Of a DNA stretch of 64,000 bases, positions 25,029 to 29,642 are shown piece after piece. This stretch comes from an uncultured Bacteroidia bacterium (GTDB lineage Bacteria > Bacteroidota > Bacteroidia > Bacteroidales > ML635J-15), in the NCBI GenBank assembly GCA_902791865.1, contig CADAXK010000001.1:128205-192204 (forward strand), in the 5' to 3' direction. Position numbers and translations under genes: made by a program. Every line of letters starts with the position of its first letter. The stretch's first letter is position 1. The notes beneath the pieces were generated by a model that searched no databases, had not been told where the DNA came from, and worked only from the letters and a program-made list of their open reading frames with translations.

Positions 25029-25105
25029 ATCATTATTAATTGTCCTTTATTCATTATCAATTATCCATTATCAATTGTTCATTGTCAATTATCCATTGTT
25101 AACTA
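25029..25105. repeat. Degenerate 7-bp tandem array (TYMATTR x about 11)
   Basis: The sequence reads atcatta ttaattg tccttta ttcatta tcaatta tccatta tcaattg ttcattg tcaatta tccattg ttaacta. It abuts the -7 box of the DUF2851 gene. Confidence 0.85.
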
Positions 25106-25111
25106 TATTTG
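25104..25111 (+). promoter_or_regulatory. -7 promoter box (TATATTTG) for the DUF2851 gene
   Basis: Exact TAnnTTTG match, 18 nt upstream of the ATG at 25129. Confidence 0.5.
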
Positions 25112-25128
25112 CACAAAACAACATTGCC

Positions 25129-26427
25129 ATGCACGAGGATTTTCTACATTTCATATACAAGAACCACCTTTGGATTGAAGGCACCGAACAGCTCACCGAC
25201 AATACACCTTTCGAGATAATCGACATAGGTCAGCATAACCACGATTCTGGTCCCGATTTTTTCAACGCTAAAATCAAAATTGACGGAATAATATGGGTTG
25301 GCAATGTGGAAATCCACGTCAATGCATCCGACTGGCACAAGCATCACCACGATGGCGACCACGCCTACGACAATGTCATACTGCACATCGTCTATAACTA
25401 CGACTGCGAAATAACACTGCAGAACGGACGCAGCTTGCCGACTTGGGAAATTTCGTTTCCGCAGACCATATTCAACCGTTATTCCGACTTCAAGCTAAAC
25501 GAAAAGCCAATTGCCTGCGCCGACTACATTGACCTCGTGGATGACATACATATTGCCATGTGGATGGAAAAGATGGCTGTCGAAAGGCTCGAATACAAGT
25601 CGGAACACATAAGCGAAATTTTACAACACACCAACGGCAACTGGAACGAAACGCTATACATTGTCATCGCAAGAAATTTCGGATTCGGCACAAATGCATT
25701 ACCATTCGAGATGCTTGCAATGCAAACGCCACTCAACGTAATGCTTCACAATGCTGACAATCTGTTTGCTCTCGAGGCAATAACATTCGGTCAGGCAGGA
25801 ATACTAAATGGTCAACCCAAAGACGAATACACTCGAAAACTTGCCGACGAATACTCTTTCCAGAAAGCGAAATACAACTTGTCGCCAATTGCCGAATCGC
25901 TGTGGAAACGCTCTAAGATGCATCCGACAAATTTCCCAGAAACTCGCCTTGCTCAGTTTGCCGCTCTAATGCAGAATTTCCAAATCCTCATCGATGACAT
26001 ACTGAACGGCAAGTTCAATCCAAATTTTTTCGACAAACTAAAAACTTCCGAGTACTGGGAAACTCACTTTTCGCTTGGAGAAACCTCATCGAAACACAAA
26101 GCTACTAAACTTGGTCTGCAAGCAATAGACACAATCATGATTAACACCGTGATACCATTTTCGTACATCTACGGCAAGACCACAAACCCCAATTTCGACA
26201 GCGAAAAAATCATTGACATGCTACACGCTACCAAAGCCGAAAGCAACAGGGAAACAAGAGCATTCACCGACATAAACAAAATAAAGTGCGAATCTGCCTT
26301 CGACTCACAGGCTCTGCTTAACCTCAAAAAGAACTACTGCGACCATAAACGCTGCCTGAATTGCAATATCGGATTCCAGATAATGAAAAAGGTTTCGAGT
26401 TTAACTATGGCAGAATCTCGTTTCTAG
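25129..26427 (+). CDS. DUF2851-family protein
   Basis: MHEDFLHFIYKNHLW...GPDFFNAKIKIDGIIWVGNVEIHVNASDWHKHHHDGDHAYDNVILHIV matches my memory of DUF2851. The start is moved from the track start at 25075, which lies in the repeat/promoter region. Confidence 0.7.
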   Translation: MHEDFLHFIYKNHLWIEGTEQLTDNTPFEIIDIGQHNHDSGPDFFNAKIKIDGIIWVGNVEIHVNASDWHKHHHDGDHAYDNVILHIVYNYDCEITLQNGRSLPTWEISFPQTIFNRYSDFKLNEKPIACADYIDLVDDIHIAMWMEKMAVERLEYKSEHISEILQHTNGNWNETLYIVIARNFGFGTNALPFEMLAMQTPLNVMLHNADNLFALEAITFGQAGILNGQPKDEYTRKLADEYSFQKAKYNLSPIAESLWKRSKMHPTNFPETRLAQFAALMQNFQILIDDILNGKFNPNFFDKLKTSEYWETHFSLGETSSKHKATKLGLQAIDTIMINTVIPFSYIYGKTTNPNFDSEKIIDMLHATKAESNRETRAFTDINKIKCESAFDSQALLNLKKNYCDHKRCLNCNIGFQIMKKVSSLTMAESRF

Positions 26428-26459: not shown

Positions 26460-26566
26460 GTCTGGATTTGCTATCCAGACAGCGTGAATATAAGGATTTA
26501 TAATCCGCTTATGTCTGCGCATTACAAATGCTGATACTCGCATGTGTCGGATTACAAATCCGACAC
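26460..26566 (+). other. Array of four related small stem-loops (GGAT..ATCC / GCAT..ATGC with ATTACAAAT loops)
   Basis: h1 is 26460-26480, GTCTGGAT-ttgct-ATCCAGAC. h2 is 26494-26506, GGATT-tat-AATCC. h3 is 26519-26531, GCAT-tacaa-ATGC. h4 is 26544-26566, GTGTCGGAT-tacaa-ATCCGACAC. A T-run follows at 26580-26586. Confidence 0.45.
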
Positions 26567-26618
26567 AACAAAGGGATGTCTTTTTTGCAAATCAAATATT
26601 TTCTATTACTTTTGCATC

Positions 26619-26704
26619 GGCGCGATGAATTAATCAAGCCGTCACCTAGACCCTCCCTTGTGGAGGGTTTAGCCCTTTTATATGGTGGTGCGAAGCATTT
26701 TTTT
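26619..26704 (+). ncRNA. Candidate small RNA, family A copy 1 (unclassified)
   Basis: The -7 box TACTTTTG lies at 26607-26614. An 11-bp hairpin CTAGACCCTCC-cttgt-GGAGGGTTTAG is present, and the T7 run is at 26698-26704. No ORF is present. The paralog at 27477-27565 carries a compensatory C:G to A:T change in the stem. The ends are estimates. Confidence 0.5.
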
Positions 26705-26740
26705 GCTTGCAATTTTAATATTTCCACTATTTTTGTGACA

Positions 26741-26861: not shown

Positions 26862-27044
26862 ATGCAATGCTCAATTATGAACCGCCTGATATTTTACATA
26901 GTTGCAGATACGATAATTGCCATTTTGGCAGCTTGCCTTTTCAACGATTCCATTATAACAGACATTATCTTGATTATATTTATTTTAGGAGAAGTCGGCA
27001 TTGAGTTACTTTTGTGGTTAATCCGAAAAATTCTCGGATTCTGA
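26862..27044 (+). CDS. Possible small hydrophobic (two-TM) protein, 60 aa
   Basis: The ORF reads MQCSIMNRLIFYIVADTIIAILAACLFNDSIITDIILIIFILGEVGIELLLWLIRKILGF and is preceded by AAAAGGAGAAATG. I see no recognisable -7 box and recognise no family. It could be a chance ORF in AT-rich DNA. Confidence 0.25.
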   Translation: MQCSIMNRLIFYIVADTIIAILAACLFNDSIITDIILIIFILGEVGIELLLWLIRKILGF

Positions 27045-27146: not shown

Positions 27147-27195
27147 AATTACAAATCATACATGAAATTCATAAATTTTCACTACTTTTGCCCTG

Positions 27196-27276
27196 CTTTC
27201 CGTTAAGGATTGTCGATGGTGGCGCGATAACTTCAAGCAGTGCCGGGTCGGTGGGGTAACGTCCACCGTTTTTTTT
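27196..27276 (+). ncRNA. Candidate small RNA, family D copy 1 (unclassified)
   Basis: The -7 box TACTTTTG lies at 27183-27190. The stem is CTGCTT...AAGCAG, and the terminator is CGGTGG-ggtaacgt-CCACCG plus T8. A near-identical copy lies 170 bp downstream. Confidence 0.5.
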
Positions 27277-27332
27277 GTCATTCTTGCACACGTCTGATAG
27301 TTTGCGGGCGGCTATACAAGAATGACTTTTTT
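27277..27332 (+). terminator. Strong hairpin plus T-run directly after D1 (second terminator or separate structured element, unit F)
   Basis: GTCATTCTTG-30 nt loop-CAAGAATGAC (10 bp perfect) followed by TTTTTT. It has no -7 box of its own. Confidence 0.45.
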
Positions 27333-27365
27333 GTCAATCAATTTTTTTTCACTACTTTTGCCCTG

Positions 27366-27444
27366 CTTTCCATTAAGGATTGTCGATGGCGGCGCGATAA
27401 CTTCAAGCAGTGCCGGGATGGTGGGGTAACGCCCACTTTTTTTT
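27366..27444 (+). ncRNA. Candidate small RNA, family D copy 2
   Basis: The -7 box TACTTTTG lies at 27353-27360. The body matches D1 with a few substitutions. The terminator stem is re-registered as GTGGG-gtaacg-CCCAC plus T8. Confidence 0.5.
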
Positions 27445-27476
27445 GTCATTCAAATAATTATTAATACTTTTGCATC

Positions 27477-27565
27477 GGCGCGTTGAGTAATAACAAGCCG
27501 TCACCTAGACCATCCCTTGTGGATGGTTTAGGCCTTTTATATGGTGGTGCACAAAACATTTTTTT
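27477..27565 (+). ncRNA. Candidate small RNA, family A copy 2
   Basis: The -7 box TACTTTTG lies at 27465-27472. The hairpin is CTAGACCATCC-cttgt-GGATGGTTTAG and the T7 run is at 27559-27565. Confidence 0.5.
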
Positions 27566-27600
27566 GCTTGCAATTATAACATTTTCACTACTTTTGCAGT

Positions 27601-27643
27601 GCGGGGGGTGTACCACCAATGTGGAGCCTCCCGTTCCTTTTTT
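27601..27643 (+). ncRNA. Candidate short RNA, unit C (hairpin plus U-run)
   Basis: The -7 box TACTTTTG lies at 27589-27596. The hairpin is CGGGGGG...CCAC-caat-GTGG...CCTCCCG, followed by TTCCTTTTTT. Confidence 0.35.
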
Positions 27644-27696
27644 ATGATACAAGAACGCCTTTTTTGTAATTCAAATATATCCATTATTTTTGCGGT

Positions 27697-27926: not shown

Positions 27927-29642
27927 ATGAGAAAATTATTCGCACTATTGACTATCGCGCTTATGTTCAGCGCAAGTGCAAGTTTCGCTTGCACGAACTT
28001 CATTGTTACCAAGGGCGCATCAAACGACGGTTCCGCTTTCCTCAGCTACGCCGCCGACAGCCACGTTCTCTACGGTGAACTCTACTACCGTCCTGCTGCC
28101 GACTACCAGCCAGGCACAATGATGAAAATATACAACTGGGATTCTGGACAATACCTCGGCGACATTCCGCAGGTTCTCCATACCTATAATGTTGTTGGAA
28201 ATGTAAACGAACACCAGCTTGCAATCGGCGAAACAACCTACGGCGGACGCGAGGAACTCTGGGAAGGTGACGGCATTATCGACTACGGAAGCCTTATTTA
28301 CCTTGCTCTGCAGCGCGCAAAGACCGCCCGTGAAGCCATAAAGGTCATGACCGAACTCATGAGCAAGTACGGATATGTAAGCGAAGGCGAATCCTTCTCA
28401 ATCGTTGACAAGGACGAAGCTTGGATTCTCGAAGTTATCGGCAAGGGCAAAGGTCAGAAAGGCGCTGTTTGGGTTGCAAGAATGATTCCCGACGGATATG
28501 TTTCAGCTCACGCTAATCAGGCAAGAATCACCACTTTCCCGCAGGCAACCAAGAAGAGCAAGGATGTCGTTACTTTCAAGAACATCGACAAACTCCTCAC
28601 CGACAAGAACATCACCTGCGTTTACTCCGACGATGTTATCACTTTTGCTCGCGAAAAGGGTTACTTCAAGGGCAACGATGCCGATTTCAGCTTCTCCGAC
28701 ACATACGCACCAGTTGATTTCAGCGGCGCTCGCTTCTGCGAAATCCGCGTTTGGGCTTTCTTCAACGATGTTGCTGAAGGAATGGACAAGTACTGGGAAT
28801 ATGCAAAGGGGACCAAGATTGAATACGATGCAAACGGCTACGCAACCAACAGAATGCCTTTGTGGGTAAAGCCAGCTAAGCCTGTAACTCTCGAAACCGT
28901 AATGCACAACATGGGCAACCACCTCGAAGGTACCGAACTCGATATGAGCAAGGGAATGGGCGCAGGTCCTTTCAACTGTCCTTATCGCTGGAGACCAATG
29001 ACTTGGGAATACAACGGAAAGAACTACATCCACGAAAGAGCAACTGGAACACAGCAGACTGGTTTCTCGTTTGTAGCTCAGTTGCGTGGCAATTTGCCGG
29101 ATGTTCTCGGTGCAATCAACTGGTTTGGCGTTGACGACTGCGCAACAACGGTTTATGTTCCTATGTACGCATCAATCACCGAAATTCCATACGCTTACCG
29201 CGAAGGCAACGGCTCGATGATGAAATTCAAACCGGATGCTGCATTCTGGATTTTCAACCTCGTATCAAACTTCGCATACACACGCTACTGCGACATCTAT
29301 CCCGAAATCGAGACCGTCAGAAGAGACTTGCACAGAAGCTTCAAGGACGAAACCGCAAAGATTGAAGGCGACCTCCGCGAAGAAGCTGAAAACAATCCGC
29401 AGAATGTTGCAAAGAAACTTACCGAGTACTCAGCTAAGGCATCTGAAAATACAATGGTAACTTGGCAAAACCTCTTTGCTAGCTTGTTTACCAAATACGT
29501 TGACGGTAACATTAAGACAGAACGCGAAGTACCAGAAGGATACAAGTACTATGCACCGGAAGTTAAGCAGCCAAAATATGGCAACGACTGGTACAAGCAC
29601 ATTGTCGAGGACGACACAAAACACCTATTGGAAGCAAAATAA
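27927..29642 (+). CDS. C69-family dipeptidase (secreted)
   Basis: The signal peptide ends in SFA|CTNFIVTKGAS, which is the N-terminal nucleophile Cys context of C69 peptidases. Length is 571 aa. Confidence 0.8.
   Translation: MRKLFALLTIALMFSASASFACTNFIVTKGASNDGSAFLSYAADSHVLYGELYYRPAADYQPGTMMKIYNWDSGQYLGDIPQVLHTYNVVGNVNEHQLAIGETTYGGREELWEGDGIIDYGSLIYLALQRAKTAREAIKVMTELMSKYGYVSEGESFSIVDKDEAWILEVIGKGKGQKGAVWVARMIPDGYVSAHANQARITTFPQATKKSKDVVTFKNIDKLLTDKNITCVYSDDVITFAREKGYFKGNDADFSFSDTYAPVDFSGARFCEIRVWAFFNDVAEGMDKYWEYAKGTKIEYDANGYATNRMPLWVKPAKPVTLETVMHNMGNHLEGTELDMSKGMGAGPFNCPYRWRPMTWEYNGKNYIHERATGTQQTGFSFVAQLRGNLPDVLGAINWFGVDDCATTVYVPMYASITEIPYAYREGNGSMMKFKPDAAFWIFNLVSNFAYTRYCDIYPEIETVRRDLHRSFKDETAKIEGDLREEAENNPQNVAKKLTEYSAKASENTMVTWQNLFASLFTKYVDGNIKTEREVPEGYKYYAPEVKQPKYGNDWYKHIVEDDTKHLLEAK

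Follow-up and report, generated by a model that had tools for sequence, protein, structure and literature searches.

A pair of putative small-RNA genes in a Bacteroidales island

What do two similar hairpin-bearing segments encode in a chromosomal gap without long genes, and what would keep their structure intact? The window (the whole 64,000-nt stretch of DNA that was analysed) comes from the 3.39-Mb, 27-contig genome of an uncultured rumen Bacteroidales bacterium (G000). The segments, named family A, are located in a 1.5-kb island that contains no credible long ORF and is flanked by a DUF2851 gene (25075-26427) on one side and a C69 dipeptidase gene (27927-29642) on the other. Copy A1 spans 26615-26682 and copy A2 spans 27473-27541 (~90% identity), and a BLAST search of the whole assembly recovered exactly these two copies (100% and 88%).

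A first-pass annotation of this DNA had proposed that the two copies align together with the promoter that follows each of them. We found this to be so, as the alignment of 26575-26740 with 27433-27600 (169 columns, mean column identity 90%) runs from the upstream promoter through the RNA and the spacer to the next promoter. The ends then assigned to the copies (26704 and 27565) overshoot the RNA, taking in spacer sequence and the -33 box of the promoter that follows. The promoters 3' of A1 and 3' of A2 are near-identical, yet different RNAs lie behind each, which suggests that the cassettes are bounded by promoters.

Promoter, 5' hairpin and terminator

Each copy can be divided into a promoter, a 5' hairpin (P1) and a terminator:
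26584-26614, plus strand: A1 promoter, read from the sequence, with TTTG at 26584-26587, a 19-nt spacer and a TAnnTTTG box at 26607-26614
26618-26641, plus strand: A1 P1, with a 4-bp outer stem, a 3-bp inner stem and a 6-nt loop (from folding and pair counts)
26646-26682, plus strand: A1 terminator, an 11-bp hairpin (26646-26672) followed by CCCUUUUAUA (from a terminator scan)
27442-27472, plus strand: A2 promoter, with TTTG at 27442-27445, a 19-nt spacer and a TAnnTTTG box at 27465-27472
27476-27500, plus strand: A2 P1, a second allele with the inner stem GUU/AAC as against GAU/AUC and a 7-nt loop
27504-27541, plus strand: A2 terminator, a 12-bp hairpin (27504-27532) followed by CCUUUUAUA (from a terminator scan and folding)

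The -7 box of both copies is TACTTTTG and lies 19 nt behind TTTG, in agreement with the housekeeping-type -33/-7 promoter of Bacteroidota. The consensus of this promoter (TTTG at -33, TAnnTTTG at -7) was reportedly established by Bayley and co-workers in 2000. The same TTTG/TAnnTTTG arrangement has been called canonical for Bacteroidota (PMC11697453). The A1 promoter is almost identical to those of the phage and prophage copies presented below.

Both hairpins named by the first-pass annotation were recovered by terminator scanning and folding (26646-26672 and 27504-27532). The region contains nine terminator-like sites, compared to 1.5 +/- 1.2 in shuffled sequences, and the folds of the two copies are modestly better than those of shuffles (z -2.5 and -2.2). 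In comparisons with the copies of G034, G028 and the metagenomes, homology ends directly behind the U-run, which likely places the 3' end of the RNA there. The 11-bp hairpin is thus best described as the predicted intrinsic terminator that closes a small, separately promoted gene. Compensatory change is what one would expect within a terminator, and taken alone it is no sign of a special structure. The functional candidate with conserved sequence is instead the predicted 5' hairpin P1. Its 2x2 internal loop, with GC opposite AA, is invariant, and a C-rich linker of 4 nt (UCAC) joins it to the terminator. Almost the whole predicted RNA is paired, and only the 6-7-nt loop and the 4-nt linker are free. 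Taken together, A1 and A2 are paralogous stand-alone genes for a compact predicted RNA of ~62-66 nt with inferred ends. Rfam gave 0 matches across the whole window at gathering thresholds, and in the island only sub-threshold matches at chance level (E up to 10).

Base pairing and strand

Using BLAST, exact-pattern scans and a covariance model, we collected homologues and obtained nine distinct family A sequences (four sister species, four metagenome contigs and one viral contig). In this set 98.8% of the cells pair, compensatory pairs occur in both helices, and two further positions alternate between G:U and A:U. The change from C:G to A:U that the first-pass annotation reported as the single compensatory difference between the two stems is indeed present and is seen again among the nine sequences. 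The 5' flank had been described as diverging freely. It actually occurs as two discrete alleles, GAUGAAUUAAUC and GUUGAGUAAUAAC, which differ by a second compensatory pair in P1 (A:U to U:A). Each is unchanged in other genomes and phages and recurs intact beside different terminator variants.

A phage relative (L033, 41.5 bits) and a relative from G014 extended the set to 11 sequences. Nine of the 18 pairs have changes on both sides and 97.5% of the cells pair, a result that was matched by 0 of 500 shuffles; the alignment was fitted to the model and therefore leans towards structure. The G:U pairs fit the plus strand only, as the opposite strand folds with mismatches at these positions. Of the idea that an RNA structure is under selection, the part that stands is an RNA-level element on the plus strand with a compensated stem, as seen in the 11 homologues and the shuffles. 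What had not been recognised is that this stem is simply a terminator.

A phage locus with a nuclease-like MuF tail

In an exact-pattern scan we detected a family A RNA on the IMG/VR contig IMGVR_UViG_3300031998_000510 (L017:10709-10777). It is convergent with a MuF gene that adjoins a Mu-type portal gene (PF06074, 3e-68), and the MuF stop codon sits inside the 5' arm of the terminator hairpin. The P1 allele of A2 is identical to the one on this contig. The MuF domain scores 24.3 bits against PF04233, below the gathering score of 29.6, and most homologues score above it. The tail of the protein matches PF18451 (CdiA_C) with an E value of 5.5e-4 and 20.5 bits, below the gathering score of 26.6, and several MuF homologues exceed this cut-off (27.6 to 40.1 bits). 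PF18451 is the family of the CdiA-CT tRNase of B. pseudomallei 1026b (PMC9990079). An AlphaFold model (pLDDT 88) was compared with the PDB by fold, and this same CdiA-CT toxin of B. pseudomallei, 4g6v_A, was the sole significant match (E 4.7e-4, with a TM of 0.59 over the target); a PDB sequence search with a MuF homologue found nothing. The pattern E...E...DxK is invariant or nearly so in the alignment. The C-terminal domain resembles the CdiA-CT tRNase toxin, and nuclease activity is predicted for it. MuF proteins with toxin tails are known and have protein immunity genes alongside (PMC5576092, PMC11699363), and MuF C-terminal domains have also been viewed as injected effectors or RNA binders that need no immunity (Iyer et al. 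2017, PMC5512222).

A gene for a ~160-aa membrane protein without a Pfam match is found at L017 10169-10660 (plus strand) and at L007 ~1790-2300. It would be transcribed in the direction of the RNA, against the phage late operon, and is moron-like.

The phage locus also bears on the minus strand of the window, where the copies could be read as small protein genes (26509-26727 and 27461-27652), given that all copies have this frame open and that it yields similar peptides. The stop-to-stop length of these frames varies from 31 to 107 aa with no common start, several copies (A1 and the phage copy among them) lack an ATG, and the ORFs cross neighbouring promoters. On phages the coding frame at this site is another one, which belongs to MuF, and the nucleotide changes compensate pairing, including the plus-strand G:U pairs. 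We regard small minus-strand proteins as hardly credible, in line with the first-pass annotation, which had put the peptide likeness down to the duplication. A second minus-strand frame in the chromosomal copies ends in ...GLNPPQGRV and a stop, which on phages is the genuine end of the 363-aa MuF gene. The vestige in A1 is as follows:
26646-26690, minus strand: 3' vestige of a phage MuF gene, with the frame ...HHHIKGLNPPQGRV and then a stop (CTA at 26646-26648), from comparison with intact phage genes

The dead MuF coding tail in the chromosomal copies indicates that the cassette moved from phage to chromosome.

A conserved slot behind MuF genes

Seventeen viral loci with related MuF genes, from 14 distinct phages, were compared with 30 prophage loci found by searching 401 Bacteroidales genomes. 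A backward promoter-RNA-terminator unit over the MuF stop was present in every one of the 14 distinct phages and in the majority of the prophage loci; the loci are mutually related, so the unit and locus counts overstate independence. The gap of 100-140 nt 3' of MuF contains a backward TAnnTTTG box and a short folded RNA, with the terminator over the MuF stop codon. No ORF is found in this gap in most viral loci, and hence none for an immunity protein of the kind that MuF modules carry. When 42 units from this slot were folded, 36 folded better on the RNA strand, with 125 G:U pairs compared to 49, figures that are biased upward because the units were picked by folding the same strand.

The slot holds more than one class of RNA. 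One class has a P1 core (GCGCGAU, 3-7 nt, UCAAGC) in common with families A and B of the window, and another is ~100 nt long with its own covarying stem. The P1 of A1 carries the motif GGCGCGAU...AUCAAGCC, and the same motif is located behind MuF genes at 10 phage loci. In one locus, the backward slot next to a MuF gene with a CdiA_C tail is taken up by a tRNA-Tyr(GTA) gene (L054 2758-2832, minus strand), with a family-B-like RNA after it, and the slot of L060 contains a tRNA-like stretch that was not called by ARAGORN. We detected no RNA unit behind three tail-less MuF genes (L056, L067 and L083), nor behind the L073 MuF gene with a glutamine-deamidase tail. A unit was flagged by the script in L074, whose C-terminus is like that of L073; the Pfam scan did not include L074. 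The slot of the Bacteroides phage BKO1-TP4 contains a convergent ORF of 83 aa with its own promoter. This ORF, gp24 (L140 3223-3474, minus strand), encodes a hypothetical protein, has a TAnnTTTG promoter and shares 18 nt with the end of MuF. Where other phages have an RNA, BKO1-TP4 may thus have a gene for an immunity protein.

The copies might also be cis-acting phage debris, in which a terminator or insulator entered the chromosome along with an A/T-rich stretch that looks like a promoter, and whose transcript, if there is one, has no function. In favour of this reading, the stem has every feature of a classical terminator, A/T-rich spacers often contain words like TAnnTTTG, and the copies carry the dead MuF coding tail. 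P1, however, lies outside the terminator and its sequence is conserved across phages whose MuF identity goes down to 25-45%. It has a compensatory pair, its two alleles are intact in several species, and the units form an ordered array with 19-nt promoter spacing. Phage debris seems to us quite improbable in view of these features.

Exchange of RNA and tail

In two pairs of phage loci the RNA and the nuclease tail were exchanged together, as a segment that covers precisely these two. The first pair consists of two G028 alleles from two contigs of one MAG (L048 and L051), in which the promoter is 100% and the N-terminal part of MuF 92% identical, and the RNA and the last ~175 MuF codons are unrelated. 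In the second pair, L038 and L040 are 91% identical up to L038:1732, unrelated over 1733-2080, and 84-94% identical again from the start of the RNA at 2081. For L036 and L044, the class of the RNA follows the clade of the C-terminal domain, not that of the N-terminal domain. The RNA physically overlaps the tail, so linkage by itself would lead one to expect that the two are exchanged together and share a phylogeny, and neither observation proves a functional pair.

The second MuF allele of G028 (L051 99-1229, minus strand) has a C-terminal domain of ~175 aa without a Pfam match, beside an RNA of the unit-6 type. We consider this domain a candidate toxin-type tail.

Distribution and an orphan array

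Family A was found by BLAST in four of the 38 other genomes of the genus. A covariance-model search of the 39 genomes of the genus gave only weak additions, among them a G014 match that shares the P1 motif and differs in the terminator. When 185,579 species genomes and the JGI metagenomes were scanned by pattern, only the same rumen lineage and its phages came up. G028 carries family A on a prophage. G003, G027 and G034 carry it at the same chromosomal locus as the window, and the array is located at one locus in four species.

Besides A1 and A2, the array in the window includes the following units:
27183-27444, plus strand: family B units B1 and B2 (boxes at 27183 and 27353), which share the core GGCGCGAUAACUUCAAGC with RNAs behind MuF in the viral loci L036 and L039
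27560-27645, plus strand: promoter after A2 and unit 6, with 74% identity to the RNA unit that follows the second MuF allele in the G028 prophage (L051)

Five array units in G000 (A1, A2, B1, B2 and unit 6) thus have phage counterparts behind MuF. The P1 allele of A1 is that of the G028 prophage, and the viral scan found nothing for unit 6. A search with a single MuF protein query gave no homologue in G000, which is 100% complete, and the same query gave none in G003, G027 and G034. A1 and A2 are therefore orphans, as no MuF gene was found in G000. What the window adds is an apparent orphan array of small-RNA cassettes in a genome without a detected MuF gene. The orphan units keep promoter, P1 and terminator in the backward orientation with no late operon nearby, which speaks for that strand.

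Three further elements were noticed in the island or its relatives. A 60-aa ORF with two hydrophobic helices (26862-27044, plus strand; MNRLIFYIVAD...) is kept at the same position in G027, G034 and G003 and has no Pfam match. A repeat ORF with VDSYPD-like heptad-to-decad units and a signal-like N-terminus (L004 ~500-810, L006 ~228-525) occurs in the islands of G027 and G003 but is missing from the window. Finally, an RNA unit of ~110 nt with several hairpins, running from promoter to terminator, is kept in three sister islands (L004 1237-1345, L005 1127-1240 and L006 905-1015); the window has no copy, and an exact-word scan of viral contigs gave no match to it.

Mimicry of tRNAs at the sequence level was examined and rejected, as only 7-8-mers coincide with the 43 host tRNAs, which is the chance level. 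For family B, the region 27192-27275 was compared with the host tRNA-Leu genes, and the colinear 8-mers TGGTGGCG and GTGCCGG-TCG are shared with tRNA-Leu(taa/caa), each at chance level, and a T-arm cannot form.

The persistence of the array at one chromosomal locus in four species would also suit a trans-acting regulatory sRNA, a phage moron that was later domesticated and base-pairs with host mRNAs like FopS and GibS of Bacteroides, with the MuF site merely a convenient one. The size (~65 nt), promoter type and terminator are as in the FopS sRNAs (PMC11697453), the RNAs are multicopy, and FopS-like words also occur on viral contigs. The RNA, however, is almost fully paired and has no single-stranded 5' seed as FopS does. 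Membership in FopS/GibS was rejected on the basis of the FopS 5' consensus, since the seed region (the complement of the published northern probe, PMC11697453 supplement) has 0 matches in the window at <=3 mismatches. Kinship on phages was rejected likewise: the seed word is found on 56 viral contigs, none of them beside a MuF homologue. A regulatory role would leave unexplained why backward RNA units lie exactly over the stop of nuclease-tailed MuF genes in diverse phages, and we consider it unlikely.

Function of the RNAs

That the units have the anatomy described here and come from phages is, in our judgement, well supported. We think it probable, by a slight balance, that the account of A1 and A2 as phage-derived copies of a small-RNA gene holds as a whole; that the RNA is a partner of the MuF nuclease domain is, taken by itself, less likely than not. 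The family itself is, as far as its sequences indicate, an uncatalogued phage-borne small-RNA family of rumen Bacteroidales, and we found no published description of such RNAs behind MuF genes in the literature.

The cassette derives from Mu-like temperate phages of rumen Bacteroidales, where it is predicted to be transcribed against the late operon from the gap behind MuF, with its terminator overlapping the last codons of the CdiA-CT-like nuclease domain. The compensatory substitution keeps the terminator, or stabiliser, stem intact. In our proposal, the RNA may act as a partner of the nuclease domain, most likely as its neutraliser. It could bind to the protein in the manner of a type III antitoxin, or it could base-pair with the MuF transcript at its 3' end. 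Orphan copies would shield the cell from phages that bear the nuclease domain.

The steps of this proposal differ in strength. A functional tie between the RNA and the nuclease tail is plausible. Neutralisation of the MuF nuclease tail by the RNA is a tentative suggestion of rather low probability. Points that weigh against it are the absence of sequence mimicry of host tRNAs, the occurrence of family A in just four of the 38 other genomes of the genus, and the published view of MuF C-terminal domains as effectors or RNA binders for which no immunity is needed. It is possible, with a rather low probability, that MuF nucleases are checked by a cognate RNA instead of an immunity protein and that A1, A2, B1, B2 and unit 6 form an acquired repertoire of RNA immunity.

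Should neutralisation of the MuF nuclease hold, polymorphic toxin systems would have their first RNA immunity factor, which would also explain why a large class of phage nuclease tails lacks an immunity gene. The orphan array, if this holds, would represent a new kind of defence island made of small RNAs only. Even on a modest reading, these RNAs appear to move from phages into chromosomal "sRNA islands" as promoter-to-terminator cassettes, in a group (the rumen Bacteroidales) with almost no RNA biology. A1 and A2 provide a clean natural pair of alleles for experiments.

Comparison with known systems

In type III toxin-antitoxin systems (ToxIN, CptIN), an RNA neutralises a nuclease-type protein, and these systems are phage-linked. 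ToxI is an array of tandem short repeats on the same strand as the toxin and upstream of it, and is processed by the toxin. The likeness to the units described here would be an RNA that neutralises a nuclease-type protein, and the link to phages. The arrangement differs, as the phage unit is single and convergent with its own promoter, and the chromosomal array consists of separately promoted units. The fold differs as well, being CdiA-CT-like and PD-(D/E)XK here and ToxN/AbiQ in type III.

SR4/bsrG and RatA/txpA of Bacillus prophage regions are type I pairs in which the antitoxin RNA overlaps the 3' end of the toxin mRNA. The phage loci share with them a convergent small RNA with its own promoter over the 3' end of a prophage toxin gene. 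Here, however, the overlap measures only ~30 nt (the terminator) and leaves the conserved P1 beyond the coding region, no cis target exists for the chromosomal copies, and the partner is a head protein of 360-480 aa with a nuclease-like tail, not a small hydrophobic peptide toxin. RalA/RalR of the rac prophage (PMC4041452) shows that the toxin of such an RNA-antitoxin pair can be a nuclease.

The FopS family of Bacteroides thetaiotaomicron (PMC11697453) is similar in size (~65-70 nt), canonical Bacteroidota promoter, terminator hairpin, multiple copies and traces on phages, but the A copies have no sequence relation to it and no free 5' seed.

The closest protein-level parallel is found in the MuF polymorphic toxin-immunity modules (Jamet et al. 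2017, PMC5576092) and in Bxa of Bacteroides (PMC11699363). Like these, the phage relatives have a MuF N-terminal domain with an exchangeable C-terminal domain of toxin type, and next to it a small, separately expressed partner gene that is exchanged with the tail. The combination of N-terminal domain and tail is present on the phage relatives only, as the window has no toxin gene. The published partners are immunity proteins, whereas here the partner would be a non-coding RNA on the opposite strand. On that reading, the orphan RNA array of the window would be the RNA counterpart of orphan immunity-gene clusters.
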